32,000 bases of DNA from an uncultured archaeon (GTDB lineage Archaea > Asgardarchaeota > Thorarchaeia > Thorarchaeales > Thorarchaeaceae). Position 1 is the stretch's first letter. Every line of letters begins with the position of its first letter. The stretch spans positions 1-32,000 of the forward strand of contig CAYHAA010000010.1 in NCBI GenBank assembly GCA_964354495.1, given 5' to 3'. This document shows, piece after piece, positions 257 through 32,000 of this stretch. Both the position numbers and the translations under genes were made by a program. The notes beneath the pieces are model-generated. The model was given only the letters and a program-made list of their open reading frames with translations, searched no databases and was not told the DNA's origin.

Positions 257-480
257 GTCTATATCCAGCTGTTGTCAACTGATGTTGGAGATTGTATCAT
301 ATATGATACAATAATCGAGCTATTTCCGAACATAGGAGGAGACCCTGAACCTGCAAAGGATGGCCTTTTGTACAAACACATTCCAACGGACTCTGATGTT
401 ATCATGCAGTCCTATCGTTTCACCTCAGGTCAGGAGTTGCACCAGTTCCTGTGACAAGTAAAACGAACATAGCGGCAACT
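257..480 (+). pseudogene. R0: 3' fragment of gene X (no DUF35 arm)
   Basis: VYIQLLS...IYDTIIELFP...PAKDG...VIMQSYRFTSGQELHQFL* aligns by eye with the ORF at 31593 and the R5/R8/R9 fragments; TGA at 452-454 sits where other copies have TGG (W). Confidence 0.75.
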
Positions 481-1945: not shown

Positions 1946-2075
1946 ACGATTTGGAAATTCGCAGAAGGAGAAGAGATTTGGCAACATGAACCAACTCTTT
2001 CGAATAGTAGGCTGCTTCATGTTCTTGACCCATTCATAGACTGGTTCGCATAGTTCCTTCATGCAAGACGCTCTT
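1946..2075. repeat. Junction repeat R1
   Basis: + TGGAAATTCGCAGAA (WKFAE) at 1952; bulged inverted repeat 1972-1998; - strand MKELCEPVYEWVKNMK. Confidence 0.85.
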
Positions 2076-3434: not shown

Positions 3435-3530
3435 CGGAAGTTCCCTGAAAAGAAAAGATGATGAGCCGGTTGTCGCAGACTTCCATCTCATTCAAGCAAC
3501 CATATCATTTCATGGTCTTGGCCCATTTGA
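3435..3530. repeat. Junction repeat R2 (eroded)
   Basis: + CGGAAGTTCCCTGAA (WKFxE-like); degenerate GAGCCGG-N13-CCATCTC at 3463-3489; - strand KWAKTMK* at 3506-3530. Confidence 0.7.
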
Positions 3531-4217: not shown

Positions 4218-4303
4218 AAGAAGAAAGAGAGAGTCGGCAGGAACTGCCAACTCAGGTGATCTCTGATTCCATTTCATTGTCTTGACCCAATCATAGACAG
4301 GCA
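4218..4303. repeat. Junction repeat R3
   Basis: Hairpin GAGTCGGCAG-GAA-CTGCCAACTC at 4231-4253; - strand PVYDWVKTMK. Confidence 0.8.
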
Positions 4304-6040: not shown

Positions 6041-6189
6041 AGTAATCGCTAATATAACGCAGAGATGAAATATTAATCCAATGGTATGCTTAAATTCTGT
6101 TAAGATAATCTCGACTTGGTCACTGAAAAGAGAAGCCCAAATCTCACTTGGTTACAGACATCTTGCCAACAGAATTCTTCGTTTTCTTT

Positions 6190-6551
6190 TTCTAGGATTT
6201 GAAAATTGCAGTCTATACTTTGCATCATGTATATCGAATCTTGCATCCGAAGGCAGCCATATGATATACCATGATTCGATTTACGATGTGATGATTGAGC
6301 CATTTCCAGATTATGAGCACGATTTCAGGCCTGCAAAAGGTATCGTTTCATACATGTAGTTTCTGATGGCTTGTGACGGGATAATTCAGAAATATCGATT
6401 CACCTCATATCAAGAATTACATTGGCTTCTTCATCATGGAAAAAGGACCAATTGGAAGTTTGAGTAAAAAGAAGAGAGAGGAGTAGGCATGCAGAGCCAA
6501 CTCTGCAATGGATAATATTATTTCATAGTCTTGATCCATTCAGTGACGGTT
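6190..6551. repeat. Junction repeat R5 with a long gene X pseudogene arm (6190-6467)
   Basis: + ENCSLYFASCISNLASEGSHMIYHDSIYDVMIEPFP...SYM*FLMACDGIIQKYRFTSYQELHWLLHHGKRTNWKFE* (one internal TAG at 6357); inverted repeat 6481-6503; - strand VTEWIKTMK*. Confidence 0.9.
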
Positions 6552-6610: not shown

Positions 6611-7396
6611 TTGATAGTAGACTTACCAGCTGGACTTAGAGAATCTGGTGCAATCGGAGTCAGAGAAAGACTCGGAACTATCTCTGGCGGAGATATCCTC
6701 GATGTAGGCACAGAAGAGGGCGACTTCATTACCACGTTGATGAAGACTCTGAGGGGATACAACTCATTCGTAGGAATAGACATCTCAGCAGATGACTTGA
6801 AGAAAGCAAGAGAGCGATTCAAAGACGCTCTAGTGGATTTGATGGAAATGAATGCTGAAACGATGTCATTTCCCGACAATCATTTTGATACAGTGTGTAT
6901 CTCATACTCAATCCATCACCTAAGGAATATTGATACTGTACTAGCTGAGATGTATCGCGTGTTGAGACCCGGAGGCAATTTCATCATCCAGGAATTGTAT
7001 TCTGATGGGGAACAGACTGAGGCTCAGCGATTGGACAGGGATATACATAATCTGAATGTAAGGATCGATACCATCTTAGGCATCCCTCATTTCAAGGCTT
7101 TAACTCGTCAGAGATTAAGAGACTCAGTCAACAAGGTAGGTCTGAGTGCTGTAGAGATCTATGAGTCCTCATGGTCTGTCAAATGCCTATTCTGTGAAGA
7201 TGCACCCGATTGTGAAGACCCGCTCAGGAAGGAGCATGTCGACTTAGTAACAAAGGAGATTGATGCTGATTTGGCTCGAATAAGTGATCATCCGTCTTAT
7301 GATGAATTGAGTAAAGAGGGAGAATCGCTCAAAGAGAGAGTCAGAGTTACAGGGTCATCTGCAGCATCTGTGATGTATTTCTTCGGAAAGAAGTAG
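6611..7396 (+). CDS. Class I SAM-dependent methyltransferase, copy 1
   Basis: ILDVGTEEG motif I, GIDIS, FPDNHFDTV, YRVLRPGG; C-terminal CLFC-x4-C. Confidence 0.9.
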   Translation: MIVDLPAGLRESGAIGVRERLGTISGGDILDVGTEEGDFITTLMKTLRGYNSFVGIDISADDLKKARERFKDALVDLMEMNAETMSFPDNHFDTVCISYSIHHLRNIDTVLAEMYRVLRPGGNFIIQELYSDGEQTEAQRLDRDIHNLNVRIDTILGIPHFKALTRQRLRDSVNKVGLSAVEIYESSWSVKCLFCEDAPDCEDPLRKEHVDLVTKEIDADLARISDHPSYDELSKEGESLKERVRVTGSSAASVMYFFGKK

Positions 7397-7424
7397 TGTC
7401 AAAACGAAATCCAAGTCAGTGCTT

Positions 7425-7625
7425 TTCAGGTTTCATGCCAAGAGTTGCACGAATTCCTCTGGCAGGGCAAAGATACAGAGTGGACATTTGAAGAAAAATG
7501 AAGGAATGAGGGGAAAAATATCGTTCTTCCCACTTGTTCAGTATGGAATTACTTCATCGTCTGGACCCATTCATAGACAGGTTCGCATAATTCCTTCATA
7601 CGCTCTTTCTCGTGGGTCATTGAAC
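7425..7625. repeat. Junction repeat R6
   Basis: + QELHEFLWQGKDTEWTFEEK*; - strand MTHEKERMKELCEPVYEWVQTMK*. Confidence 0.9.
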
Positions 7626-11791: not shown

Positions 11792-12361
11792 TCAGAGAGA
11801 GATTTCTGCTTTTCTTCTTGACCTCGAGTTATTTAGTGAATTACTATTCATTGTAATCATATCCCTGTGTTTCTTCGACAATAAAACCAGTTTCGGAACC
11901 GGGTAATATCGTACAGAAAATCCCAATGCAATGAAAACTAAACCTGTACCTAAGACCCTCAATTGTGGAATTCTATGAAGGACATAAATCTGACTGGGAG
12001 CGTAGCCAGATTGATTGAAAGGTCTAACCAATAAAACATACAACCCGGGAGATCCAAGGTCAACAGGACCAGAATACTCACTTATATTCACTAGACTGAA
12101 TACAATTGTTACGTTTTCGATTGGAGTCCCATCAATGAATCTAAAACTCTCTTCGATAGTCATGAAATAGAGAGAGATTGGTATTGGGTGTCGCATAGTA
12201 ACTATCAGATAGGGATCATCGGGACATTGCAGCAGATGTATAACGGAATAACCTTCAGGAGGATCGTCATACGTTGATAAGATGTAACTTGGAATGAATG
12301 AAATCATACTAAGGACAATTCCAAGTACGAAGAGCGATTTCCAAAGATGCTCATTCTCCAC
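11792..12361 (-). CDS. Two-TM membrane protein, tandem paralog A
   Basis: N- and C-terminal TMs; shares blocks with 12365-12883. Confidence 0.75.
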   Translation of the reverse strand: MENEHLWKSLFVLGIVLSMISFIPSYILSTYDDPPEGYSVIHLLQCPDDPYLIVTMRHPIPISLYFMTIEESFRFIDGTPIENVTIVFSLVNISEYSGPVDLGSPGLYVLLVRPFNQSGYAPSQIYVLHRIPQLRVLGTGLVFIALGFSVRYYPVPKLVLLSKKHRDMITMNSNSLNNSRSRRKAEISL

Positions 12362-12364
12362 TAT

Positions 12365-12883
12365 TCAAACCTCCACCCTTCGAGACGCCAAAATACTATG
12401 GAACAATACTAATACACTAAATATGATGAAGACAAAACCTGTACCTAAGACCCTCAATTGTGGAGTTTCACGAAAGACAGTCATTGAGTAACCCAAGTAA
12501 TCATATTCAATTGTAGATTCAGATTGATTGAAAGTCGTAATAAAGAGAACATACAACCCGGGAGATCCAAGGTCAACAGGACCAGAATACTCACTTATGT
12601 TCACTAGACTGAATACAATTGTTACGTTTTCGATTGGAGTCCCATCAATGAATCTAAAACTCTCTTCGATACTCATGAAATAGAGAGAGATCAGCCTATC
12701 ATTTTGCACATCCACAATCAGATATGGATTCTCTAAACATTGGAACAAGTGTCCTCTATATGCAGAAGTATCATAAATAAGAATTCCCCCGTTTTCCGAT
12801 GAAAGAATACCTTTGCTGAAGGAAATCATTACCAAGACAATTCCAAGTACGAAGAGCGATTTCCAAAGATGCTCTCTCTCCAC
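12365..12883 (-). CDS. Two-TM membrane protein, tandem paralog B
   Basis: MEREHLWKSLFVLGIVL; operonic with the ABC genes. Confidence 0.75.
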   Translation of the reverse strand: MEREHLWKSLFVLGIVLVMISFSKGILSSENGGILIYDTSAYRGHLFQCLENPYLIVDVQNDRLISLYFMSIEESFRFIDGTPIENVTIVFSLVNISEYSGPVDLGSPGLYVLFITTFNQSESTIEYDYLGYSMTVFRETPQLRVLGTGFVFIIFSVLVLFHSILASRRVEV

Positions 12884-16897: not shown

Positions 16898-16955
16898 CTC
16901 AATACGTGATATACATGGTAGATGATAGCGTCACAGCCAAGATTGACGAGTTCTC

Positions 16956-17105
16956 TGTGAGGTTGTGATGCAGACCTATCACTTCACATCAGTGCGAGAA
17001 CTCCATGAATTCCTGTGGCATGGCAAAGAAACGAATTGGAAATTCGAATGAAAAGAAGACCGTGAGCTAGAGTCTAAGTCTCTCAGCTTATTTTCGTTTT
17101 TTGAT
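16956..17105. repeat. Junction repeat R8
   Basis: + CEVVMQTYHFTSVRELHEFLWHGKETNWKFE*; bulged inverted repeat 17063-17090; DUF35 arm nearly erased. Confidence 0.85.
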
Positions 17106-18572: not shown

Positions 18573-18625
18573 GCGACTACAAACCGAACACGTACTTGAC
18601 AATTACGCTCGTTTTGTACGAGAGG

Positions 18626-18820
18626 TGTCGCTTCACATCAGTACAAGAACTTCATGAGTTCCTATGGCATGGAAGAGATACAAAGTGGAAGTTCGCTGAA
18701 GAATAAAAGTGGCAGAGCTGGAAGTCACAAGACAACCAGCTCTTGGGATTATCAGGTTGCTTCATTGTCTTGACCCATTCATAGACTAGAGCGCAGAGTT
18801 CCTTCATGCAAGACGCTCTT
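18626..18820. repeat. Junction repeat R9
   Basis: + CRFTSVQELHEFLWHGRDTKWKFAEE*; AGAGCTGG-N14-CCAGCTCT at 18714-18743; - strand MKELCALVYEWVKTMK. Confidence 0.92.
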
Positions 18821-19062
18821 CATTCAGGGGACTTGTCCTTCAATTCGTACTCGGAGCGCATTTTCTCAAGTCTCTTTCGATCCTCATAGGTCTTGTAAAC
18901 TCCAACAGCTACTGCACAAGGACCAACAGTACGGACTCTCCGTCGCTTCTTATGGTGTATCAAGGTTTTGTCTGTTCCACGAGCTCTTGAGTCTCTACCA
19001 ATTATCAGGACAAATACTGCAATTGCTAATCCAGCAGAGAGTAGAATCAGACCTAATTCCAT
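18820..19062 (-). CDS. Small single-TM protein (80 aa), copy 2
   Basis: Paralog of 2075-2317 with the same junction to the repeat. Confidence 0.7.
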   Translation of the reverse strand: MELGLILLSAGLAIAVFVLIIGRDSRARGTDKTLIHHKKRRRVRTVGPCAVAVGVYKTYEDRKRLEKMRSEYELKDKSPE

Positions 19063-19397
19063 AAGTGATACGTATGCTAGAGTGATAAAAATATCATGAA
19101 TAAAGCAGGAGTGAGAGTGAGTTGCACAACACACGCTCTGAGAAGCTCACTCGCTTCTTTGGATTCTCCAGGTCTGAAATACATCGTATAGAGGATTCTT
19201 GATGACCTCGATTTGATCGATCTAGGGTTGGAAAGTAAGAGATGAAGAGCTGATCGTCGTCTAAGAAGCGCACACAAGAGGATTGATTAGGAAAGCAATA
19301 GACTTGATTTGAGGGAAATCTGCTGCTGGCGCGAGAGTCAATAGTCGCATCAATTGTTCTGATATTATGTCTGGCAGGATGTTATCCAATCTCGCCA

Positions 19398-20687
19398 GTG
19401 AAACATCAGCTGCAACTAGTCGCGCTTGCTGAAGAGGAGTCTTTTCAGTCTGAAAATAACCATGAGGCAAGCTCCGCAGCAGTGGTCATCGTGAATTCGG
19501 ATGACGATTTCAACACATCAGGTTGGACAGGAAATGGAACAATCGACAATCCGTATGTGCTTGCCAATAAGACGATAGAAGGCGAGCGTTGTATTCAGAT
19601 AGAAGATACGCGTTGTCATTTCAGGATCGAGAATTGTACACTGGATGCAGTCTACTATGGCATTACTCTCTTCAATGCCACTAATGCTGTTTTGATTGAC
19701 TGCACCATAGACTCTGAACAATTGTGCATATCTGTACATTTGGTGACAAATGCAAGTATTCTACATAATTCAATCTATTCAGCTGAAAGGGGGATTGAAA
19801 TTGAACAGTCGAGTCTATGCGGCGTGGTCAATAACAGCATTGAAACACGTTGTACTGGAGTTGCTCTGTTTTTTTCAGGTCAGTGCCACATCGCGAACAA
19901 TTCAGTATCATGTAGCATTGAAGAGAACTTGGTCCTCTCGAAAAGCAATAGTACTAGTGTCATAGAGAATACGTTTCTAGGGGGGGACAGCGGGCTATTT
20001 TCTTGGGAAAGCCACGATTGTGATATATTCAATAATACAATTGCCAGCAATGGATATGCAATTCATGTACGGGAATCATCAAACGGCTCCATTATTGGTA
20101 ACCAATTTGGTAGTGTAGCGGGTGAGACTGCTCTTGATGATGGAACCGATAATTCGTGGGATGATGGTGTATCTCTGGGAAATGCATGGCTTGATTATGA
20201 TGGGATTGGAGAATATCAAATACCTGGAATGGCCAATAGCATAGATCATTTTCCAACAAAGTTCGAACCACTGTTTCCGATGGATTTTGATGGTCCGTCT
20301 ATTAGTATTCCTTTCTATTTTGTCCATTTTGATTATATTGGTGAAATACCCGCCTCATACAGGTTTTGTGCCACTGTGACTGACCCATCCGAAGTGGACA
20401 CAGTCATCATCACTGTAAATGGAGGGGCTCACGTAATGAACCATCAACCCACCCCTGAGGATCCAGACCTCTATATCTTTGATTATCCCAATCCAGGTGC
20501 GATGAGGCACTCCTATTGGGCAAATGACAGTGTGGGGCATTCATCTGCTACCGAAGAGGGTTTTATTTCAATGGGGATCATTGCAGGTACCGTACAAGAT
20601 ACGGCGAGGCTATACATGACAATCGGTGGCCTTCTGGTGCTCGTCGGAGCCATTGTTGTATTAGTACGACGACTAAGGCCAAAGTAG
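19398..20687 (+). CDS. NosD-like beta-helix surface protein, copy 2 (5' end extends to about 19320, start disrupted or CTG)
   Basis: Colinear with 537-1916; signal peptide and LAGC are in frame upstream of 19398, but there is a 1-nt deletion relative to the TTG start of copy 1. Confidence 0.85.
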   Translation: MKHQLQLVALAEEESFQSENNHEASSAAVVIVNSDDDFNTSGWTGNGTIDNPYVLANKTIEGERCIQIEDTRCHFRIENCTLDAVYYGITLFNATNAVLIDCTIDSEQLCISVHLVTNASILHNSIYSAERGIEIEQSSLCGVVNNSIETRCTGVALFFSGQCHIANNSVSCSIEENLVLSKSNSTSVIENTFLGGDSGLFSWESHDCDIFNNTIASNGYAIHVRESSNGSIIGNQFGSVAGETALDDGTDNSWDDGVSLGNAWLDYDGIGEYQIPGMANSIDHFPTKFEPLFPMDFDGPSISIPFYFVHFDYIGEIPASYRFCATVTDPSEVDTVIITVNGGAHVMNHQPTPEDPDLYIFDYPNPGAMRHSYWANDSVGHSSATEEGFISMGIIAGTVQDTARLYMTIGGLLVLVGAIVVLVRRLRPK

Positions 20688-20715
20688 CTGATGCTAATCA
20701 ATGGTTCTCTGATGA

Positions 20716-20971
20716 CACGGTTTGGAAATTCGCAAAAAGAGGAGAGAGAGTTGGCGGCATGGAAGCCCACCAACTCCTTTGCCGGTTCTACCTCATCGTC
20801 TGAACCCATTCATACACAGGCTCGCAGAGCTTCTTCATGCGCTCCTCCTCGGGCGTCATCCCCACGCTTGGTTTCCAGCCCTCAGCTGGCTGGAAGCACC
20901 AATCGGCCCCTGTGCCCTGGCGCTCATTCCCTGGAATCCAGACCACTCCTACAGGCATGCCCGAACTCTGC
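20716..20971. repeat. Junction repeat R10
   Basis: + TGGAAATTCGCA; GAGTTGG-N15-CCAACTC at 20748-20776; - strand GMPVGVVWIPGNERQGTGADWCFQPAEGWKPSVGMTPEEERMKKLCEPVYEWVQTMR*. Confidence 0.92.
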
Positions 20972-20977
20972 TTCTCC

Positions 20978-22348
20978 TTACTGAATCTTCTGCTCGCGGA
21001 ACCACTGATCACAAACCGTCTTGACTAATCTGTTGTGAGGCTCAATCTCCAAAGCACGCTTCATTGATTTTTCTGCTTCCTTCCTCCGACCAAGTCTACC
21101 TAACGCACTGCCCCGAGCAGTCCAGGGTAATCCTGAAGCGGGAATTGCCATAATGGCTTCTTCAATTAATGGTAAAGCTTCTTCACATTTGCCACGTTCT
21201 ACAAGAAGATCAACAAGCATCAGCTTGCTCCTAGGATCATCTGGATAGTCTATGATAGTATGGCGGAGGACTTGCTCAGCTTCATCGTATCTTTCTTGTG
21301 GCGCCAAGGGGTATCCTTTGCCAAGAGATTGCACCATAGTTGCCAGTTTCTGAGCGACGTCGTCGGAAATATAACGGACTCTCTTTTCTCCTGTGTCCTG
21401 GTCTGCAACAGCAACTCTGACGCTCTTGGCATAAGCGGACTGAGCCTCCTCGTCTCTGCCACCAATTTCCTGTAGAACACAATATAGATTCGACCAGGAT
21501 ACTCTTTGTGATGGGTCACTCTCTACTGCTTTTCGATATGCCTCCTCAGCCTCATGGAGTCGACCTTGATTATAGAGTCTAACTCCCAGATTGTGCCAAG
21601 CCTTTGCATTGTTTGGAGTAAACATCGTTGCGTTTCGATAGGCAACGACCTCTTCATCAATCAGCTCTAGTCTATTCAAGACAAGTCCGAGCTCATTCCA
21701 GATGAGACCATCATATCGTGCAGATTCGAGATACTGTCGATATGCGTCCGCTGCTTTTTCAAACTGATTCATATTGGACAGTACAAAACCCAGGCCTTTC
21801 CAAGGGAGCGCATAATTGGGATCCAGATCAAGTGATTTCCTAAATGCCATCTCAGCCTCCCGAAATGACCCCTGTTCTGCTAGAGCGAAACCTAGATTGC
21901 CCCAAGATCGTTGATCACCCGGATTACACGCTATGGCCTTCGTGAAGGCATCTTCAGCCAGTTTTGCACGTCCGGTTCCTTTGTATATATTTCCAAGGTT
22001 GAACCAGGCCGCGTAGTTCTGAGGGGCGAGAGTAGTAGATTGTTTGAATGCACGCTCAGCATCATCAAGACGAGAAAGGGATAGAAGTAACGAGCCGTAA
22101 TTCGTCCAAGTGGTTCCTTTGGTACTGCCTAGATTTACGGAACATTCAAAGGCCTCTAAAGCCTCATCCGCCCGACCTTGCATCATCAAGACGAGTCCGA
22201 GTAATCCCCATCCCTCAGATGAGTTCTTGCTCTTCGCAAGCAGCTCTCTGCAGCATTTCTCAGCTTCGTTGTTGTTGCCCTGCTCTGCCAACTCCCAAGC
22301 ACGGGAAATCGACTCCTTTTCTTCATCATTCATTTTACATGCCTTCAT
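20978..22348 (-). CDS. Tetratricopeptide repeat protein
   Basis: Many 34-aa repeats (AWFNLGNIY, SWGNLGFAL, PWKGLGFVL, AWHNLGVRL). Confidence 0.92.
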   Translation of the reverse strand: MKACKMNDEEKESISRAWELAEQGNNNEAEKCCRELLAKSKNSSEGWGLLGLVLMMQGRADEALEAFECSVNLGSTKGTTWTNYGSLLLSLSRLDDAERAFKQSTTLAPQNYAAWFNLGNIYKGTGRAKLAEDAFTKAIACNPGDQRSWGNLGFALAEQGSFREAEMAFRKSLDLDPNYALPWKGLGFVLSNMNQFEKAADAYRQYLESARYDGLIWNELGLVLNRLELIDEEVVAYRNATMFTPNNAKAWHNLGVRLYNQGRLHEAEEAYRKAVESDPSQRVSWSNLYCVLQEIGGRDEEAQSAYAKSVRVAVADQDTGEKRVRYISDDVAQKLATMVQSLGKGYPLAPQERYDEAEQVLRHTIIDYPDDPRSKLMLVDLLVERGKCEEALPLIEEAIMAIPASGLPWTARGSALGRLGRRKEAEKSMKRALEIEPHNRLVKTVCDQWFREQKIQ

Positions 22349-22457
22349 TTAACGACATAACTAGCTGCTGTTATTTCTTTTGTTTTCACAAACGAAGGCG
22401 CATATCTTCATGTGGTCTTTCATCACATTTGATTTGTCAGCAGACAGATTTCCGGTT

Positions 22458-22920
22458 TTCTGGCATGGCAAAGAAACGAATTGGAAGTTCGCTGAAGAAT
22501 AAAAGTGGCAGAACTGGAAGTCATAAGACAACCAGCTCTTGGGATTATCAGGTTACTTCATTGTCTGAACCCATTCATACACAGGCTCGCACAGCTTCTT
22601 CATCCGCTCCTTTTCAGGGGTCATCCCGACACTCGGTCTCCAGCCATCTGCCGGCTCGAACCAGAAGTCCGTGACGGTGCCCTGTCGGTCGTTCTTTGGT
22701 TTCCAGACGACCTTCACTGGCATGCCGAACTCAGCATCCCAGGGGGCGAGTCCCCGCAGCTCGTTCGCGATTGCAGTCTTGCAACCGTCAACGATGACGT
22801 ATGCAAGCACGAAGGGGAGGCGTTTCAGAGAACTCCGTCCTGACCACGCAGCGATAGTCCAAGTATGAACAGTGCCGCGCTGCGCCAGTGGCTGCCAAGT
22901 TGTACGCTCCAAGATGCAAT
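22458..22920. repeat. Junction repeat R11 (longest DUF35 arm)
   Basis: + FWHGKETNWKFAEE*; inverted repeat 22510-22539; DUF35 arm 22553-22920. Confidence 0.92.
22553..22920 (-). pseudogene. 5'-truncated Zn-ribbon/OB-fold (DUF35, ChsH2-like) gene
   Basis: GTVHTWTIAAW...LPFVLAYVIVDG...AEFGMPVKVVW is the DUF35 OB-fold pattern; the N-terminal Zn-ribbon is missing. Confidence 0.8.
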
Positions 22921-22954
22921 CCCTTCTAAACATGGAGATTACTTCTCCATCGTC

Positions 22955-24631
22955 TTAGTGCAGAGAATCAATTATGGTAGCAAGTTGTCGTAAAGATTGT
23001 GTCAACTCAATGACTACGGTTTCAATAGCTTTCGTCTTCGTCAATTCACCTAGATTAAAGCGCTTCATTTGTTTATTGAATTCATCCCCACTGCGGTGTG
23101 CAACCCCACTAGAACGAAGTTTTTGTACCATCCTTAAACCAAGTACAATTTGCTCCTTCTTTTCATCATCAACAGAAAGGTCTTCAAGATAAGCGGCAAG
23201 AAGGTCAATAGGTCCCTTAATTTCCCCTTTTGGATCTATTTTCTTCCCTGTTAATGAAGTCAGTAATTCTACATTTAATGAATCTGATGTGAGTTTTGCT
23301 AATGCCAAAATCTGGTCGTCAAACTCCCTCCAAGTATCTACTATTGGTGTTCGTATCCAATCTTCATTATGCTGGTCTCTGTCTCTAAGTGGTTTGATAA
23401 TTGGCTCATTGTATTCTTCAGAGGATTTCTTTTGAAGTAGTTCGAAAGTCTTTCGAAATTCATAGACTACATCGTTTTTCGGTTCGACGAGAATACCCAC
23501 AATATCTCTCATGAATACTTCATTAGGTATCATTCCATTAGATGCGACATTAAAACTCCGCCAATACATTTGTTCCTCATAAGATATGCGCCCTAAATCA
23601 CCCAGCCAGACCATAATCAATCCCTCATCTGTTCTGTTGTAATCTATCCCTAGTTTTTTCCATGAAGGTTGATTGATGTATTTGAATAGGACTTCCTTTC
23701 TAAAATAAACAGGAGTGAGAAAATGAACAGTTCCACGATCTTTGAAATAGCTACTGAGTTCTCTCTCATCACAGGTTTCTTCTTTCTCTTTTCCATTTTC
23801 ATCATGCCCTATTATGAATTGAACAAACCTACGGTCTTCTTCACCCGTAAGATAATACCAGTGTCGCTTGTCAGGCATTTGGTAGGGTTCCATGATATCC
23901 TTCCCAATAAGGCGAGAACTTGACTTGAACTCATCTGAAACTGTGTTCTTCCTAAGAATCAAATCAAAACACGAATGACTAGTCGCAATCCTATATACCC
24001 CCTGATGCTCTTCAGGAATTCCGTCAACTCCAACACGACGGTGGTCATGATATCTGACAAGATAGCTTTGATTTGCTGCGAGATAGTATTTTAGAAGATG
24101 AGCATTCATAAGGATCAAGGCTTCATCTTGTTTGGGATTCATAATTCTGACAACAGTTTCTGTATCCCCTTTTTCATTGATTCGTTGATAACTATGTTCA
24201 GACTCAACATAGAATGCATTGTAGTATAGAATGAAAGTCTGAGAAACCTCGAAGTGATCACGAGATTGGTCCTCAAACTCACGAAAAATCACAAGCGGTT
24301 GAAACGAAATATCATTAATGATTACATTTTGACCAGAACGATAGATAATCTCCTTCTTGTCAGATTCCTCAAAGAAGGGTGCACCAAAATAATCAGCACC
24401 ACTCCAGTTGATTTCCCAATCTGGATTCGAAATAAGTCTTTCCAAATGGCCTGATCCAACTGAAGCAAGAGCACAACGAGTCCGAAAATCGTCGATTTCT
24501 GGATTTTCCGAGTGTTGAGCTACTACTAGCCACTTCTTGGATTCATAGTTTTCCCTTTCAATCCAATCTTTAAAGGAGAGAAAGGGATACTTGTCAATAA
24601 CCTCTTTTGTACCTTCGTCATTACTTGCCAT
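22955..24631 (-). CDS. 558-aa hypothetical protein with a putative C-terminal HEPN motif
   Basis: Long ORF; likely start MASND at 24631; C-terminal LRMVQKLRSSGVAHR fits HEPN Rx4-6H. Confidence 0.7.
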   Translation of the reverse strand: MASNDEGTKEVIDKYPFLSFKDWIERENYESKKWLVVAQHSENPEIDDFRTRCALASVGSGHLERLISNPDWEINWSGADYFGAPFFEESDKKEIIYRSGQNVIINDISFQPLVIFREFEDQSRDHFEVSQTFILYYNAFYVESEHSYQRINEKGDTETVVRIMNPKQDEALILMNAHLLKYYLAANQSYLVRYHDHRRVGVDGIPEEHQGVYRIATSHSCFDLILRKNTVSDEFKSSSRLIGKDIMEPYQMPDKRHWYYLTGEEDRRFVQFIIGHDENGKEKEETCDERELSSYFKDRGTVHFLTPVYFRKEVLFKYINQPSWKKLGIDYNRTDEGLIMVWLGDLGRISYEEQMYWRSFNVASNGMIPNEVFMRDIVGILVEPKNDVVYEFRKTFELLQKKSSEEYNEPIIKPLRDRDQHNEDWIRTPIVDTWREFDDQILALAKLTSDSLNVELLTSLTGKKIDPKGEIKGPIDLLAAYLEDLSVDDEKKEQIVLGLRMVQKLRSSGVAHRSGDEFNKQMKRFNLGELTKTKAIETVVIELTQSLRQLATIIDSLH

Positions 24632-25013
24632 CTGTGTTGCTTCCAATAGTCTTTTGACTGAACTACTTCGTCCGCTAGTCCCTAACCCACACATGCATAC
24701 GGTCCCCATGGGCATTAATCTTATTCGTTTTGAGACCCAGGAAGAACCACCCTTATCTGTTTCTAAGCAAACACGGTTTAGTGCAGATGGAAACATCCCC
24801 GAGGCGTGGACAGAAACGATTTAGGTTTGATTCCGCAACAAAAGTGAGCTCACTTGCAGTTTGGTACTATAGGAGTATATAGAACGCATACATAGAACCT
24901 GATAATCCAAGTGCCACAGTTCATAGCTCCGATTTGGCAGCATAGGCTCTTTTGACTACATTCTTCGTAGTAATCAAGTTCCATAGTGGACTTCTAATGG
25001 CCTCCAAACTTCT

Positions 25014-25751
25014 TTGAACATCCTGAATATCATTCTATCAACAATATTTGGGAAGAAAAGGCGTATGTATGAACATGACTTGTGTGATTCCATGATCTCC
25101 CTCAAGAATGAACAGGAAGCTCAGAAGAAGCAAGAGATTGATGCTGCAGAAACATTGTTCAAACGTGGAAAGCAGCTCCTAGAGGATAAGAAACTCCTTG
25201 ATGCTCAAGACTGCTTTGGAAAGGCAATAGAACTTGACCCGTTCAATCGTGAGGCATTCAGACTGCACGAGGAACTCAGACTCAGACTGGGTCCGAGTGG
25301 AGATGAAGACTGTACAATCTTTGTTAGAGACCCCCATAGGCAGCTTGGAACCCTCATCCTCCACGCAGGTGAGTGCCATAGCTGGTTCCGGAGGGAGGTT
25401 CCGGGAGTCTACGACCTCGCAATGTATCTGGCTACTGAGAGGGGAGTCATCAATTACGAGAACCACCGGATTGTAGCCATCGTCATATGCGTCTTCAGCC
25501 ATCAATACGAAGCCGCAAAGGATTGCCTTGAAGAACTTGCGAGGAAAATTAGGACTCTTTGGAGAATCGGAGCCACTGTAAGACCAGCAGGGGGGGATGA
25601 GCTGCCTCCGTATTTTGAGGTGCTTCTGAAACCAGAATACGAGACTCAGGAAACTAATCGCCTCTCTTGCGAGAAGGAACTTCAGAACATGATTTTGGCG
25701 GCTTGTAAAGAAGAACAGGGGGGGGACACAGGTGGCGGAAGATCTGACTAA
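25014..25751 (+). CDS. Hypothetical protein with one TPR-like hairpin
   Basis: LFKRGKQLLEDKKLLDAQDCFGKAIELDPFN. Confidence 0.65.
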   Translation: MNILNIILSTIFGKKRRMYEHDLCDSMISLKNEQEAQKKQEIDAAETLFKRGKQLLEDKKLLDAQDCFGKAIELDPFNREAFRLHEELRLRLGPSGDEDCTIFVRDPHRQLGTLILHAGECHSWFRREVPGVYDLAMYLATERGVINYENHRIVAIVICVFSHQYEAAKDCLEELARKIRTLWRIGATVRPAGGDELPPYFEVLLKPEYETQETNRLSCEKELQNMILAACKEEQGGDTGGGRSD

Positions 25752-25868
25752 GCAATCATCAACAAGAGATCGAAAAGCGCTTCTCAGGAAACACAACGAT
25801 TGCAAGGGAACAGTGCAGCGCATCATCGGGCCGTTGAGAATCGATAGAGGCAAGGGGGAGATAGTCAA

Positions 25869-26501
25869 ATGACGGGCAAAGTTCAAGATGAGAAGAAGAC
25901 AGACCTCTGTGAGGACAGCCACCTCCCGAAGAGTGACTGCGAATGCTTAGTATGCAGTCCAGACTTCTTTGACATCAATCAGCTGCTGGTTGAATGTAGT
26001 ACTCTTGATAATGTGGTCAGAAAACTCGAATCTGCTCTTGACTTCTTTCACTACCTTCAACGCAATGGATTTGGAGCAGGAATCTCAACTGACAACGCAA
26101 CAATCAAACTGATTCCGTCGATTGTGGAGGATTACTCTTGGGTGAGATGCGAAGGGTGTGGCTATCCCGCGCTCGTTCCAAAAGGGGAGAATCAGGATAT
26201 TCTCTGCGAAGACTGCCACACCCTCATCTCATCCAGAAAGGAAGGAGTGGAACCATCATACTATGATGACCTCTTCGATTACATCGGACAGATGTTCGAG
26301 AAGGCCAGTGATGGCGAAAAACCACTGACCGAGGCGTATGGATTTACACGAGAGTTCTGCGAGATCTACGGGTTTGATTTCGAACTCATAAAGGCGCGTC
26401 TACAAGTAACGGGCGGATACGATGATGCAGAGGTATTGATGAACTCTCAGTTCATGATCCCACGATTTGATCTCTTACCGCTTCTGGAGGATTCAGAATG
26501 A
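25869..26501 (+). CDS. Cys-rich Zn-finger protein with a C-terminal DUF2695-like domain
   Basis: CECLVC and CEGC...CEDC motifs; FTREFCEIYGFDFELIKARLQVTGGYDDAEVLMN resembles DUF2695 (GGYCDCEV). Confidence 0.65.
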   Translation: MTGKVQDEKKTDLCEDSHLPKSDCECLVCSPDFFDINQLLVECSTLDNVVRKLESALDFFHYLQRNGFGAGISTDNATIKLIPSIVEDYSWVRCEGCGYPALVPKGENQDILCEDCHTLISSRKEGVEPSYYDDLFDYIGQMFEKASDGEKPLTEAYGFTREFCEIYGFDFELIKARLQVTGGYDDAEVLMNSQFMIPRFDLLPLLEDSE

Positions 26502-26559
26502 GGGAAATCAGACAAGACTACGAGAAACCAGAATCGTACGTACAGGAGATTGGTGACTG

Positions 26560-29500
26560 ATGTCGAAAGAGACCGAATCAAGCCCTATTCTATCCGGGGT
26601 ATTCAAAGTACTGGTTGCCTTGGTTCTCGCCATGATCCCGGGGATAGGACTGTTCATTCTTCTCCTCCTGATACCATGGATTTCAGTTGATTGGATTGGA
26701 CTAACACTCCTTCTCTCTGGCATTGTATTCGTTGTTGGAGCAGGCATCCTTCTGGAGAGCAGAAATGTCCGCCTATGGCTCTATTCGATCATGTGTGGAT
26801 TTCTTATCGGATTTGGCAGCATCATCCTGGCGACTCTATGGATCCTCACTACCATTCCCGTTCCACTCTTCGGTAATGCCTTCTATGCAACGATCATTAT
26901 AGCGGCTTCGGCAGGACTTCTCATCCTTTGGTACTTGCCGACAGGCAGGAATTCTCCGCAACAGGGACTAGTCTCAGTGTCATCAAAGTCTATCGCGGTT
27001 CAGCGACTCTCTCTTGGAGGAGCGCTCTTCCAGAAGAGAGATGCTAGAGTAGTGGCTATTGAACTCAAGGAGATACCTCATGAGTATGCCTTCGTGGAAG
27101 ATGCAAAAAGAAATCCCAAGGACATCATTGAGCGCTTTCATACGATCATCAGGGCTCTTGCCACAGTTCCATTCGCCTTGCGCTTTGAACGGGCTAATCG
27201 CAATACACGTGTGCTGTTTCTCACATGGTCGTGTGACCAGACGCAACTTGAGCATCAAAGCATTATGCTCTACGATGCCCTAAGCTACAACCTGCCGAAT
27301 TTCAAGTTCGCTCAGCCTGATTCATTCGAAGGGCTAGTTCCGAGCGAGAGCACCAAAGGGGCTTCAGCGTTCATTACCGGTGTTCCCCTATCAATCAAAG
27401 ATGAAAGGCAGGTCAGCGAACCTCTGGAGGCCATGATAGGTGTTCTACAGGACCTTGAGAATGGTGTTCTCCAAGTCTTTGTCGAACCTGCTTCTCTGAG
27501 CAAGTCGAAACTCAAATCCTTGGAGGCACAGTATCGGCGAGAAGTGGAAAAATCTGAAACGACAGTCTCTCGGGACAAGTCAGGCTGGATCGTCGGGCCT
27601 CACCAGGAATCTAAGACCACTGTGAATCCAGAGGCAATGATGAAGTCTGCGATTCTCGAACGTCAAATCAAGCGCTTGTCGAATCCGCATCTGTACAAGA
27701 CGACTGTGGTTGGAGTTTCGTGGAATACTGATGTCGCAACAGCTGATAGAGATGCACGACGACTCGCTGGTGCTCTAGCTGGATCTCTTCGACCAGACAA
27801 TGATCACGATGATTTCAGGATCCGGTACAGAACAAAGGGAAGAGAGATTGAGAGCCTATTGAGAGGGCTACCCATTGGAGAGCCATCACTACTGACAGCG
27901 GATGAAGTGACCGCATACTTCATACTGCCAAAGACAGATGTTGGAATACGTGTCACAAAACGCGAGAAGTTCTCCTCGGGAACCAGAGAGGTTCAGTCAG
28001 ATGCTCCGAAGGAGCGGAAGTTGGATGAGATAACCTCGCGGGTATCATCGAAGGTCAGGTGGAGAAGGCGTGAACCTAGACTCTACTTCGGAAATCCCAT
28101 TGACGAGAGTGGAAAAGCCCTGGCAGATGTGTTTCTGAGAACCGATGTGAAGCATCTCGATATGCATCTCGGAGTCTTCGGTAACACCCGCTCTGGAAAG
28201 TCGACCACCGTTATGAGCCTCATAGGGCAAGCCATCTCACTGGGCGTGAATCCGATAATCCTCGTCCCTTCGAAGGGATATGAGTGGCGAACGTTGCTCA
28301 ACGTCTTTCCCGATGTCAGGGTGTTCACCTGTGGAAGGAACGACATTGCAAATCTAGCCTTCAATATCTGGGCGCCGCCTCAGGGAGTCAGAATTACAAA
28401 ATGGATAGACCGCGTGGTTCAGGTCCTGACACTATGGCTGCCAAATGATGATGTGATCTCGATGCACATCGAGGACGTGATCTACACAGTCTACAAGAAC
28501 TGCGGTTGGAACCTTGACACAAATGAGAAAGGCAGACCAATCCTTCTTACCGACCTCGTCGACGCGGTAAGGCAAGTGAGCGAGCGACTTGACTACGGGA
28601 ACGAGGTGAGCGCTAACATCTATGGGGCGCTCGTTGCTAGAGTCAAGAGCATTCTCAGAAAACCCTCTCTAGTGAATATGTACAATACTCTAACGGGAAT
28701 CACTGTCAGCGAGCTGCTTGCTCACCCCACCATAATAGAGATGGATGCACTAGGCGAAAACGATAAGATTCTGCTCATGGGCATTCTCACCGCTGCCGTG
28801 TGTGAATACAAGCTAGCAAATCCGACAAAGGAGGTCTCCAATCTTCTTGTCTTGGAAGAGGCACACTATCTGCTCAGTGGCACGGATATCAGCGGGGAGG
28901 CAAACTCGGGTGTTCGACTTCAGGCTGTGAGCGCCTTCATCGAGATGCTGCGCGTGCTCGGAGGAACTGGCCTCGGTGTCATTCTCATCGACCAATCACC
29001 ATCCTCACTTGTCCCTCAGGCAGTCAAGATTCCTGTCAACATGGTAATTCATGCTCTCTCTCATGAAGATGATAGGAGGCTTGCTGGAAAACACTCCAGA
29101 TGCACTGAGTCCCAGATCGACCACATTGGAGGTATGCAGACCGGTGAGGCCGTAGTATACCTCCAGCACGAGGGAGAACCGAAGAATGTCAAGATGTTCA
29201 ATCTGGAAATGATTCTGCATGGCAATCTTCCCAGTACGACAGTAGACGACCAGAGAGTCGTAGAACACATGAGAACGATCCTTGAGAAGAATCCGCACCT
29301 CCGCCAGACTGAACCGCTTCCAGACAACATCATGGACAGATTCATCCAAGGTGATTCAAACAAGAAGAAATACCCGTCAGAGATACTTTCTCAGAAATAC
29401 AAGGAAATCCTGTCACAGGCAATAGTCAGCACTGAGTTTGGTGAGTTCTGTCGGGAATGCCTTGACAAGAAAGATGTTGGTGCACTCGTCGATCTGTTTC

Positions 29501-29646
29501 ATGCTGTTGACGACAAGTACGGTGACGGTTCTAGAATCTCGTTACTCTATGTGCTAGAGTTCACGCTGGACCATTATGGTGCGGACGACGACTTGGAGAT
29601 CTTTCATCAGGTTGCTGTCGCTATAGATGGAGAACAGGCAGCATGA
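26560..29646 (+). CDS. Membrane-anchored HerA/DUF87 (VirB4/TraD-like) P-loop ATPase
   Basis: Four N-terminal TMs; GVFGNTRSGKST Walker A; LLVLEEAH Walker B; VILIDQSPSSL. Confidence 0.85.
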   Translation: MSKETESSPILSGVFKVLVALVLAMIPGIGLFILLLLIPWISVDWIGLTLLLSGIVFVVGAGILLESRNVRLWLYSIMCGFLIGFGSIILATLWILTTIPVPLFGNAFYATIIIAASAGLLILWYLPTGRNSPQQGLVSVSSKSIAVQRLSLGGALFQKRDARVVAIELKEIPHEYAFVEDAKRNPKDIIERFHTIIRALATVPFALRFERANRNTRVLFLTWSCDQTQLEHQSIMLYDALSYNLPNFKFAQPDSFEGLVPSESTKGASAFITGVPLSIKDERQVSEPLEAMIGVLQDLENGVLQVFVEPASLSKSKLKSLEAQYRREVEKSETTVSRDKSGWIVGPHQESKTTVNPEAMMKSAILERQIKRLSNPHLYKTTVVGVSWNTDVATADRDARRLAGALAGSLRPDNDHDDFRIRYRTKGREIESLLRGLPIGEPSLLTADEVTAYFILPKTDVGIRVTKREKFSSGTREVQSDAPKERKLDEITSRVSSKVRWRRREPRLYFGNPIDESGKALADVFLRTDVKHLDMHLGVFGNTRSGKSTTVMSLIGQAISLGVNPIILVPSKGYEWRTLLNVFPDVRVFTCGRNDIANLAFNIWAPPQGVRITKWIDRVVQVLTLWLPNDDVISMHIEDVIYTVYKNCGWNLDTNEKGRPILLTDLVDAVRQVSERLDYGNEVSANIYGALVARVKSILRKPSLVNMYNTLTGITVSELLAHPTIIEMDALGENDKILLMGILTAAVCEYKLANPTKEVSNLLVLEEAHYLLSGTDISGEANSGVRLQAVSAFIEMLRVLGGTGLGVILIDQSPSSLVPQAVKIPVNMVIHALSHEDDRRLAGKHSRCTESQIDHIGGMQTGEAVVYLQHEGEPKNVKMFNLEMILHGNLPSTTVDDQRVVEHMRTILEKNPHLRQTEPLPDNIMDRFIQGDSNKKKYPSEILSQKYKEILSQAIVSTEFGEFCRECLDKKDVGALVDLFHAVDDKYGDGSRISLLYVLEFTLDHYGADDDLEIFHQVAVAIDGEQAA

Positions 29647-31499
29647 CTCGTGAAACTGGCGAGCATGTCAGACGGAGGGAACTAGCTCGTCATGGTGAAG
29701 ACACCAGTGAGTTTCACGACGAGATGAAAGAACTTGTCAGCGATGTGCGAAGAAGGTCAGCAAGCAAAGAGGAGCAGACAGGAGGAGAGAAGCCAAGCGA
29801 AAATGAGCGCCTAGAAAGTGACAGACAGTACAGTCAACAGATGCGCGAGATTGTTGATGAAGTCAAGAGGAAGCGAGAGGTCGAAAAGCCAGAACAGGCC
29901 CATGAACAGCTTCAGTCAGAGAAGAGCGAACCAAAGAAGGAAGAAGGTCAACCAAATAGAGGTCAGAAACAGAATTCAAGAGAGAAGCCAGAAACGGACA
30001 TTCACGGAAGAGAGAGAGGAAGCTACAGGCACACCGAGGAATCGAGAAGGAAAATATCTGAAGGCCTGAAGGGAAAGAAACTGAGCCCAGAGCACCGAAG
30101 GAAACTCTCTGAGGCGAATATGGGAAAGATGCACAATAGACATACTGAGGAGTCGAGAAGGAGGATCGCAGAGTCTCTGAAAGGGCATGAGGTACCAGAA
30201 GAAACACGTAAGAAAATCTCTGAGACCTTACGGGGGAGAAAACTGACTGAGGAACATAAGCGAAAGGTATCAGAGTCTCTGAAAGGCAGGAAACGGGGTC
30301 CGATGAGTGAAGAAACTAAGAAGAAGCTCTCTGAGGTCAAGACAGGTGTGAAGCTTGGACCACAATCTGAGGAATCAAGAAGAAAGAGATCTGAGGCTCA
30401 GAAGGGGAGGAAATTCACAGACGAACATCGCAGAAAGCTCTCAGAATGGCAGCGAGGTAAGAGGCTGAGTGAAGAACACAGACGGAAGATTGGGGATGGA
30501 CTAAGGGGCAAGAAGCGAGGGCCAATGAGCGAAACTCAGAAAGAGAAGATTTCGCAATCTCTCAGAGGAAGAAAAGGTCACCCCGTAAGCGAGGAAACCA
30601 AGAGGAAACTCTCAGAGCTGGGAAAGGGGAGAAAACACTCAGATGAAACAAAAAGAAAACTATCGGAAATACAAAGAGGGAGAAGGAGGAAGCCGCACAG
30701 TGAAGAAACAAGAATAAAGATATCCGAAGCAAACAAGGGAAAAAAACGGGGTCCGCCAAGTGAAGAAACTAAGAAGAAGAGATCTGAAGCTCTCAGAGGG
30801 AGGAAACTGAGTGAGGAGCATAAGAAGAAAATCAGTGAAGCGAACAAGGGGAAGATGCCATCTCCACTCTCCGACGAGGGGCGAAGGAGAATATCTGAGG
30901 CAAATAAGGGCAAGATTCTGACCGAAGAAGTCAAGCGGAAGATATCAGAAGCTCACAGAGGAAAGAAACACGGCCCACTAAGTGAGGAACACAGGAGGAA
31001 GATATCAGAGAGCAACAAGGGAGTCAGTAGACCTTCACCATCAGCAGAGCATAGGAAGAAGTTGTCTGAAGCAGGTAAACGACGACCTCCGATGTCCGAA
31101 CAAACAAGAAAAAGAATCTCGGATTCCAATAAGGGTCACAAAGTATCCCTTGAAACAAGAATGAGAATATCCCTTGCTCATGGAGGCGATGGCATCTATT
31201 ATTCTGAAGATGAAGACCTTAGGGATACACGCTACAGAAGAAAGCAATCATTAGAAGCGAAGAGAAGAGATGATTTCACCTGCCAAGAATGCGGCAGGAA
31301 ACCTGAGAATAGTATAGACGTTCAAGGCCACCACATAGTTCCTAGAAAAGAATGGTGGAGAATGGAGTATTACCCATTGGACTGGGTTGTGACACTATGT
31401 ACAGATTGCCACATTGTTAGTGATAAGCGGAAAGGAGTCATCAAATGGCCAAAGATGTCAGAAAACGCAAAGCAAACCAGAGTTGACGAGTTCAGCTAG
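29643..31499 (+). CDS. NUMOD3-repeat HNH endonuclease
   Basis: About 21 SEExRxKISExxKG repeats; C-terminal RRDDFTCQECG...GHHIVP...VVTLCTDCH HNH/McrA-type domain; ATGA-coupled to the ATPase. Confidence 0.88.
   Translation: MTRETGEHVRRRELARHGEDTSEFHDEMKELVSDVRRRSASKEEQTGGEKPSENERLESDRQYSQQMREIVDEVKRKREVEKPEQAHEQLQSEKSEPKKEEGQPNRGQKQNSREKPETDIHGRERGSYRHTEESRRKISEGLKGKKLSPEHRRKLSEANMGKMHNRHTEESRRRIAESLKGHEVPEETRKKISETLRGRKLTEEHKRKVSESLKGRKRGPMSEETKKKLSEVKTGVKLGPQSEESRRKRSEAQKGRKFTDEHRRKLSEWQRGKRLSEEHRRKIGDGLRGKKRGPMSETQKEKISQSLRGRKGHPVSEETKRKLSELGKGRKHSDETKRKLSEIQRGRRRKPHSEETRIKISEANKGKKRGPPSEETKKKRSEALRGRKLSEEHKKKISEANKGKMPSPLSDEGRRRISEANKGKILTEEVKRKISEAHRGKKHGPLSEEHRRKISESNKGVSRPSPSAEHRKKLSEAGKRRPPMSEQTRKRISDSNKGHKVSLETRMRISLAHGGDGIYYSEDEDLRDTRYRRKQSLEAKRRDDFTCQECGRKPENSIDVQGHHIVPRKEWWRMEYYPLDWVVTLCTDCHIVSDKRKGVIKWPKMSENAKQTRVDEFS
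30024..31185 (+). repeat. Tandem NUMOD3 coding repeats (17-20 codon units, about 21 copies)
   Basis: Counted manually in the translation. Confidence 0.85.
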
Positions 31500-31592
31500 G
31501 ACTGTGAATGGATTTGAAAAGGTTAAGACTGCTACTTATAGTAGTTATCATGTGGAATATATTAGGGTCGGTCAGTATATTGAATTGAGACG

Positions 31593-32000
31593 ATGAATAT
31601 GAATAAAGCAGATATTTGGGCGCTTCTTGAGCGGTTCAGAAGATCGGAATTCTACACTGTTGTTTTGAATGAAGCATATCTTGCGAGATATGCTGGAATA
31701 CATCTTGGTTCTTATGTTGAAGAGCCAGACAATGAATTCTTGGAGGATCTGCGTGACCTTTTGATTGGCGGCTCGACCATTGGGGAGAAGAAAGTGAAAT
31801 CTTTTCTTGAGAATAACTCCGCAGACAAGATAAGATCAGCTTTTGAACTCTTTTTGGCTGAAGAAATAGAGCCAATAGGATTCATTGATACCTTTCTAAA
31901 ACTGAAAAACTGCGACCTCTACTTTGCGTCACAGCTGTTGGGTTTTGCATCGGAAGGGTCCTATATCACATATCATGATTCTGTATACGATGCGATGGTT
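31593..32000 (+). CDS. Gene X family member, intact 5' end, runs off the window; possibly HhH-fold/glycosylase-like
   Basis: Open frame of 136 codons from ATG 31593 ending ...KLKNCDLYFASQLLGFASEGSYITYHDSVYDAMV, matching the R5 and R0 arms; not in the ORF track. Confidence 0.8.
   Translation, partial: MNMNKADIWALLERFRRSEFYTVVLNEAYLARYAGIHLGSYVEEPDNEFLEDLRDLLIGGSTIGEKKVKSFLENNSADKIRSAFELFLAEEIEPIGFIDTFLKLKNCDLYFASQLLGFASEGSYITYHDSVYDAMV

Follow-up and report, generated by a model that had tools for sequence, protein, structure and literature searches.

The window analysed here is the whole stretch of 32,000 nucleotides at the start of contig C10 (C10:1-32000), in the 97.7%-complete genome of a Thorarchaeote (G000; 3.3 Mb, 51 contigs). 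The contig is 110,015 bp long, so the sequence beyond the right edge of the window was readable directly; because it starts at window position 1, the left end of the array described below is absent. The ORF that runs from 31593 toward the right edge is an intact gene of 192 aa, here named X, with its stop codon at 32169-32171. Its C-terminus reads ...YRFTSVQELHWFLWHGKTTDWNFT (the last residues are alternatively quoted as ...AYRFTSVQELHWFLWHGKTTDWNFT) and fits the pattern ELHxFLWHG..W.F. The X stop codon lies 8 nt from a terminator-like hairpin, which is followed, in the minus-strand sense, by a T-rich run, TTCTTTTCTA. On the other side of the short spacer a convergent DUF35/ChsH2-like gene ends, and a thiolase-like gene adjoins it (Table 1). 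OB_ChsH2_C and zf-ChsH2 are the former DUF35 domains; the DUF35 gene also matched zf-ChsH2 in Pfam at E 1.8e-4, which is under the curated cut-off.

This arrangement had been predicted in the earlier note from the window alone. It expected the 31593 ORF to end in an ELHEFLW...WKF-type tail and to be followed by an inverted repeat and a full-length minus-strand DUF35 gene, and all three were present past the window: the tail quoted above, the 14-pair hairpin and the 270-aa gene. The outcome named there as refuting, a 31593 ORF that lacks this tail or has no DUF35 sequence behind it, did not occur. The peptide strings that the note had quoted for its repeats R5 and R0 were likewise found in the sequence.

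Table 1. Features of the cassette array and of the adjoining operon. Positions are those of contig C10 unless another contig is named.
Feature	Position	Strand	Remarks
X tail fragment, residues 131-187, one in-frame TGA	299..469	+	tblastn E 8e-14
J1	1952..2062	.	X trace; hybrid junction, repeat families D2, D11
J4: X trace, hairpin, DUF35 tail 49 aa	4887..5105	.	foreign allele type
Heliorhodopsin, intact, sole gene of the cassette between J4 and J5	5216-6040	-	Pfam E 9e-90
Longest X fragment, residues 101-191, one in-frame TAG	6189..6461	+	tblastn E 3e-32
X tail fragment, ~residues 152-191	7361..7489	+	tblastn match 7304-7489, E 3e-5
Two tandem paralogues, 189 + 172 aa, family not recognised	11792-12883	-	
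X tail fragment, residues 159-191	16947..17045	+	tblastn E 1e-8
J9: X tail 28 aa, hairpin, DUF35 tail 16 aa	18611..18807	.	repeat anatomy
J10: X trace (last 3-4 codons), hairpin, DUF35 tail 57 aa	20723..20961	.	
J11: X trace 10 aa, hairpin, DUF35 tail 128 aa	22461..22939	.	
Youngest unit, upstream of X	22940..31592	+	five genes
558/613-aa gene	22955-24796	-	youngest unit, abuts J11
HNH nuclease, ~21 tandem NUMOD3 repeats before HNH	29643-31499	+	
Gene X	31593..32000 within the window (136 first codons), continues to 32171	+	ORF + translation
Terminator-like hairpin, 14 pairs	32210-32179	-	inside 48-nt X/DUF35 spacer
Intact DUF35/ChsH2-like gene, 270 aa	32220-33032	-	Pfam OB_ChsH2_C E 4.4e-9
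Thiolase-like gene, 425 aa	33035-34312	-	Pfam
IS607-like pair: 200-aa serine recombinase (MerR-type N-terminus) + convergent 436-aa ORF	C22:1-1916		
Further IS607-like pair copies	C24:10745-12300; C7:24406-25707		

The window carries an array of repeats that copy this gene junction. The repeats consist of the coding ends of X and DUF35 plus a simple terminator hairpin of 7-14 pairs with a T-rich run. The repeated block measures about 90-130 bp and comprises the last X codons (if any), the hairpin, a spacer of about 15 nt and at least the 7 last DUF35 codons; it is present 11-12 times, in the same orientation and at a single locus. The minus-strand arms are DUF35 tails of 16-128 codons. A 20-nt motif at the DUF35 end occurs in 11 copies in C10:1-32223, all in a single orientation, and elsewhere in the 3.3-Mb genome only two matches with 3 mismatches were found. 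Across the genus, 12 genomes contain 45 copies of this motif, most of them followed by a spacer of about 15 nt, a hairpin and a T/C-rich run. The hairpin stem, GAGCTGG..CCAGCTC, has compensatory variants, for example GAGTTGG..CCAACTC. Judged by this pattern, the hairpin segment is the putative terminator-like end of the DUF35 operon and the universal part of the repeat.

The plus-strand arm is more variable. The earlier note had claimed that this arm is the tail of X in every repeat; the claim held clearly for 9 of the 12 repeats, with 3-91 codons of X each. The repeat near 3508 has only an X trace with one mismatch, and the two near 4272 and 9950, which are doubtful, have no convincing X remnant. 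The longest fragment (91 aa, 62% identity, HMM E 3e-28) has the DUF35 end motif 3' of it at 6521. The X tail at 7361 adjoins a DUF35 tail at 7552-7623. The DUF35 arm is degenerate at the 16947 repeat and deleted at the 299 repeat. In J9, the X tail comprises residues 164-191 (18611-18694; tblastn E 1.5e-5). At four junctions (1952, 4887, 20723 and 22482) the last 3-10 X codons alone are kept, and the W-K/N-F codons TGGAAnTTY stand 63-75 nt before the DUF35-end motif. A tblastn search of the whole 3.3-Mb genome found X fragments confined to C10, apart from one paralogue on contig C7. The identity of X accounts for the second arm of the repeats.

The distribution of both genes was compared among 28 genomes of the genus (G000 and G001-G027). 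Fifteen of the 28 have a complete DUF35 orthologue (77-84% identity), the thiolase-like gene (85-92% identity) adjoins it wherever the retrieved stretch extends that far, and further DUF35 tails lie downstream of the orthologue in most relatives. The thiolase-like gene, DUF35 and the DUF35 hairpin all belong to the genus core. A search of the 28 genomes recovered full-length X from two only, G000 and G015, where it converges on DUF35. Identity between these two genomes is 54% for X, 79% for DUF35 and 89% for the thiolase-like gene. By HMM, a significant X tail occurs at 8 of the 45 motif copies only, and arrays occur in genomes where no full X was found. Because of these two counts, 2 of 28 and 8 of 45, X is to all appearance accessory and the DUF35 end core. 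The relatives are shown to carry the same kind of array with some of the same cassettes, and the hotspot is common across the genus. Three cassettes (DinB, methyltransferase and a 206-aa gene) are common to G000 and G002 at 77-90% identity, in a different order.

Substitution patterns in the arms bear on where the repeats came from. The three longest DUF35 tails, compared with the resident gene or its orthologues, gave dN/dS of 0.08-0.11 with dS near 1 or saturated. The tail of J11, which is the longest and has 87.5% aa identity to the resident gene, gave dN/dS 0.11 and dS 0.97 against that gene. X tails gave pN of 0.22-0.26 and pS of 0.6-0.9. In both arms, saturation of synonymous sites goes with a dN/dS of about 0.1-0.2. 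These low values indicate that the divergence arose under selection and not during the decay of the fragments, and the small number of in-frame stops in the X tails indicates that decay came later. Intact X, compared with its G015 orthologue, had pN 0.28 and pS 0.75, and the lower pN indicates that X is under selection.

The DUF35 tails also differ in their nearest alleles. In the final 51-75 nt, J4 and J7 share 83-88% identity with alleles of other species and 67-75% with the resident DUF35; J1 and J9 are likewise nearest to the DUF35 alleles of other species. The foreign-type tail of J4 reads ...RIKELCQPVIEWVKTMK. J10 and J11 are nearest to the resident type, and the resident gene and the J11 tail are about equally distant from the orthologues, in an alignment that is unreliable in mid-gene. 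These mixed affinities indicate that the arms are pieces of alleles from several lineages. From these comparisons both arms are shown to be relics of once-functional, diverged alleles and not local duplicates.

The earlier note had left two models side by side: X arrived with incoming DNA and its older copies eroded, or X|DUF35 is an old core junction that was duplicated in place, for example by unequal crossing-over, so that the arms are local decaying copies. All copies do occupy a single locus and point the same way, J10 and J11 have the PSVGMTPEK indel of the resident type in common besides being nearest to the resident DUF35, and X adjoins DUF35 in two genomes, as duplication in place would have it. 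However, pseudogenes that decay in place should give a dN/dS of about 1, not 0.1-0.2 with saturated dS, four junctions (J1, J4, J7 and J9) match alleles of other species better than the resident gene, and full-length X is limited to the two genomes named above. We consider duplication in place very unlikely. Import is favoured over it because of the rarity of X, the saturated synonymous sites and the foreign-like DUF35 tails. The import model does not explain well why only truncated X, of at most 91 codons, is found inside the array: had whole X come with every unit, eleven separate 5' truncations that spared the adjacent cargo genes would be needed.

The junction blocks themselves show where recombination took place. 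J9 (18.7 kb) and J11 (22.5 kb) have 88 nt in common as a direct repeat (3 mismatches, 97% identical), which extends from the last X codons across the hairpin to the first DUF35 bases, and the outer flanks of the two junctions are of different allele types. A 50.8-kb contig of a related strain, from another sample, joins 18622 to 22701 and is without the NosD-like and TPR cassettes in between; it is about 93% identical in the HerA region. Among public runs, related DNA was detected in one sample only (12% of sampled words), as contigs, and no cassette was seen in circular form. Such a polymorphism fits a single-crossover gain here or loss there, at the junction. J1 combines the J10 left half with the J9 right half (repeat families D2 and D11), and its likeness to J9 extends 230 bp beyond its right half. 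In these alignments the junctions are shown to be mosaics of one another. The patterns of J9/J11, J1 and G002 are footprints of single crossovers inside the block. The 88-nt duplicated crossover region and the empty site in a related strain are new here.

Divergence from the 50.8-kb contig (runs X1-X4; window 24818-31408) was also seen to grow toward the junction, from 6.5% between TPR and HerA to 12% in the middle of HNH and 17% at its end, and X had no match on that contig at 85% likeness. This gradient hints that the junction-proximal part may have been swapped for a more distant allele.

The moved cargo includes heliorhodopsin, toxin-antitoxin parts and defence-like genes. The two tandem paralogues, whose DNA repeats are 80-87% identical, lie upstream of an ABC-ATPase gene in one long unit. 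The youngest unit, whose left border is J11, holds the 558/613-aa gene, a TPR gene, a Zn/DUF2695-like gene, a 1028-aa HerA-like ATPase and the 618-aa NUMOD3-HNH nuclease, and is mostly present at about 93% identity in the contig of the related strain. PADLOC returned nothing for the 558-aa protein, the TPR gene or the Zn-protein gene.

On the far side of the array, contig C22 begins with an IS607-like pair, followed by a methyltransferase fragment, a DinB-like gene, a coiled-coil protein and a flavodoxin-like gene. The genes after the pair keep synteny with the far side of the G012 array, and the G000 array therefore probably runs on from C10:1, over an assembly gap, to the beginning of C22. 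The IS607-like pair at the array-facing end of C22 probably explains the assembly break. A separate segment near the other end of C10 (C10:108424-109103) matches, at 87% identity, part of the DUF35 array of G002 (L045:7860-8539), and thus at least one cassette-like piece also lies outside the array.

X itself had no family in Pfam at E <= 0.01 and no match in PADLOC. HMMER, run in full against 1.84 billion representative proteins, placed it in a family of 32 clusters, mostly of about 190 aa, with the common C-terminal motif ELHEFLWHGxxTxWxF. The earlier note had made a weak guess of a HhH glycosylase-like/McrB-associated fold, and the structure model and fold searches agree with it. The AlphaFold (AF2) model (pLDDT 93.2, pTM 0.88, ten helices) has a two-lobed, all-helical fold with a central helix-hairpin-helix. 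VIA-align matched it to 3n0u_A (Tm1821, an Ogg2-type 8-oxoguanine glycosylase of Thermotoga) at Z 10.2 and rmsd 3.8 over 167 of 192 residues, and after it to ten further HhH-GPD glycosylases at Z 5-6.3. Ranks 1-7 in Foldseek are Ogg2 enzymes at TM of about 0.5. The nearest shapes in the ESM Atlas (TM 0.65-0.79) are the N-terminal domains of McrB-family, NucS_C/PD-(D/E)XK, PLD/NgoFVII-like and restriction-endonuclease proteins.

The likeness of X to the Ogg2-type 8-oxoguanine DNA glycosylases (Tm1821, MjOgg, SsOgg) covers the whole length of the fold, whereas sequence-level membership of HhH-GPD was found neither in Pfam nor by profile match: the best PDB profile match, 3fhg (SsOgg) over residues 35-183, had E 0.041, below significance. 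In the HMMER alignment the SsOgg stretch G-I-G-x-[K/Q]-E-A-S pairs with G-v-g-l-f-f-a-s of the family, and where the bifunctional Ogg enzymes have their catalytic Lys, X and its relatives have F or Y. At the place of the Ogg catalytic Asp, about 20 residues past the hairpin, X has YHD, and an Asp stands there in about half of 22 family members, with a register uncertain by 1-2 residues in both cases; unlike in Ogg2, this Asp appears not to be conserved. The C-terminal motif is the family's own and not an Ogg feature.

On the strength of the model, X is confidently predicted to be a stand-alone protein of Ogg2-like HhH-GPD fold, and its role would most likely be that of a DNA-binding or base-recognising cargo protein. 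X also adds a small unannotated family to the HhH-GPD fold, and this family connects stand-alone archaeal proteins with the domains by which McrB-, NucS- and PLD-type nucleases read DNA. The paralogue on C7 (G000:C7:122615-123184, minus strand; 27% identical) has radical-SAM, nucleotidyltransferase and glycosyltransferase genes as neighbours, and repeated tails are absent from its surroundings. Another family member, 38% identical, is surrounded by ordinary metabolic genes and has no array. No recurring partner gene was found near the relatives P0002, P0003, P0006 and P0010 and the C7 paralogue.

The position of X raises the question of its job within the youngest unit. The HNH gene starts with a 4-nt overlap on the stop of the HerA-like gene and X follows 93 nt further on, all three being co-oriented; the order HerA-HNH-(~785 nt)-DUF35 is kept in the related strain. 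The HerA-like gene matched the mad8 and HerA models of PADLOC weakly (E 3e-11 to 1e-8), and in the ESM Atlas McrB, NucS, PLD and restriction nucleases carry X-like domains as fusions. X might be the sensor of a three-gene defence-like module made up of these genes, with the junction simply the end of the cargo. However, the lack of a PADLOC match for X, the unrelated cargo that adjoins other X fragments (heliorhodopsin, methyltransferase, DinB) and the family members elsewhere, which are not beside HerA or HNH genes, speak against such a module, and we regard it as unlikely. It concerns the job of a passenger and is compatible with the additive-island reading given below.

Recombinases that could serve the junction site were looked for in the genome and its relatives. 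PF00589 (tyrosine recombinases, including the Xer type) had no match at E <= 0.01 in the 97.7%-complete G000, in a search in which 14 of 14 control genomes scored, and it was absent from the array contigs of the relatives. Within the genus it occurs in 8 of the 28 genomes only, mostly on short contigs. For PF00239 (serine recombinases), the only proteins above the cut-off were the IS607-like TnpA copies on C22, C24 and C7. These were rejected as the recombinase of the array, being missing from the relatives' arrays and read as insertion sequences.

The 558/613-aa protein beside J11 was considered as a hidden integrase and rejected, as it has no recombinase-like fold by homologue alignment, AF2 model (pLDDT 86.7) and PDB and atlas fold searches; no solved fold matched the model beyond a weak local likeness to Avs3. 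Its family is widespread and unannotated, with 86 clusters that include Thorarchaeota and Paceibacterota, and relatives occur in defence-island-like settings near RM, AbiEi, SLFN/AlbA_2, NucS_C and TIR genes. No recombinase serving the junction site was thus found among tyrosine recombinases, serine recombinases and the 558-aa candidate, although an unrecognised enzyme may act there. A search of IMG/VR for a virus or plasmid with the DUF35-end motif gave two chance matches without DUF35 or hairpin context.

The lack of a conventional recombinase in the genome and in the relatives' array contigs draws attention to X as a possible targeting or initiating factor, a glycosylase-like HhH protein that recognises or nicks the hairpin junction. 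X stands directly against the junction, its tails are the commonest hairpin neighbour in the G000 array, and its DNA-binding fold is related to lyase-competent enzymes. In SSV-type elements, attP overlaps the integrase gene; the cassettes here might in like manner retain the 3' end of X since the site overlaps the gene, a detail to which we give the same very low probability as to the factor itself. Against such a role, significant X tails are limited to 8 of the 45 motif copies, arrays occur where no full X was found, the 38%-identical member and the C7 paralogue sit without an array, and the Ogg catalytic Lys is F or Y with an Asp that appears not to be conserved in the family. We hold a factor of this kind to be highly improbable, and the chance is just as slim that the array runs without a classical recombinase because X-family proteins initiate the crossover by marking or nicking the junction. 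If true, X would be the founding member of a glycosylase-derived class of recombination-initiating factors in Asgard archaea. X is probably not the array's recombinase and looks like a passenger of the array, not its engine.

The explanation we favour, and consider rather probable, is that X is an intact accessory gene at the gene-proximal end of an additive cassette island, located at the 3' end of the DUF35-thiolase operon. The island would grow and shrink at the end of this core operon, with cassettes coming and going by single-crossover (Campbell-type) recombination within the block. Each cassette would carry its own copy of the block from other lineages. Units that arrive with a whole X would set it beside DUF35, and X copies stranded in the array would shed their 5' parts. 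The crossover might proceed by homologous recombination on the short conserved core or through a recombinase encoded elsewhere; with blocks of only 65-88% identity the former would be an inefficient route, and this counts against the explanation. X may act together with the HerA-like ATPase and HNH nuclease just upstream. The repeats would then be whole convergent-gene junctions moved from genome to genome and not a bespoke recombination site. New here are the identity, fold and accessory status of X and the selection signatures of both arms.

In kind, the array belongs with the additive genomic islands, or tandem accretion sites. Flexible islands of the additive type, marked by repeats of the end of the target gene, have been described in Alteromonas and others (PMC4898812). 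The Thorarchaeote array is like these islands (PMC4898812) in occupying one chromosomal hotspot beside a conserved gene. It also resembles them in the variable numbers of small cassettes between close strains, with cassettes shared between species, and in the direct repeat of part of the target gene that marks each addition. Its repeats lie at one locus in one orientation and copy the 3' end of the target, and cassette presence and absence between strains has its breakpoints in the repeats, as in additive islands. Unlike these islands, which target a tRNA or tmRNA, it uses the 3' end of a protein-coding operon with its terminator. Two convergent genes each contribute one arm of its repeat, its host is an Asgard archaeon, and an integrase was not detected in the genome.

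In staphylococci, SCC composite islands accrete in a comparable way at the 3' end of rlmH (orfX), and in Streptococcus thermophilus ICE/CIME elements do so at the 3' end of fda. These systems accrete in tandem, many of their elements are without a recombinase of their own, and the elements are bounded by direct repeats of the last bases of a conserved protein gene. Their recombinases are Ccr serine recombinases and a tyrosine integrase, respectively, and their repeats measure 15-30 bp. The Thorarchaeote array shares with them the tandem accretion with direct repeats of a gene end, whereas its gene tails reach up to 128 codons. No SCC or ICE/CIME system is known to add a second arm taken from a convergent gene. 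Integrons (IntI + attC arrays) likewise have cassettes of one or two genes separated by a structured hairpin repeat, and the cassette content is similar, with toxin-antitoxin parts, methyltransferases and unknowns. Unlike integrons, G000 has neither IntI nor any other PF00589 protein, its repeats are gene ends plus a terminator and not of attC architecture, and its cassette genes lie on both strands.

In the sequence upstream of X, AATATATTA at 31556-31564 lies about 30 nt 5' of the X start codon. It could be a candidate archaeal TATA box, which would give a near-leaderless X transcript.
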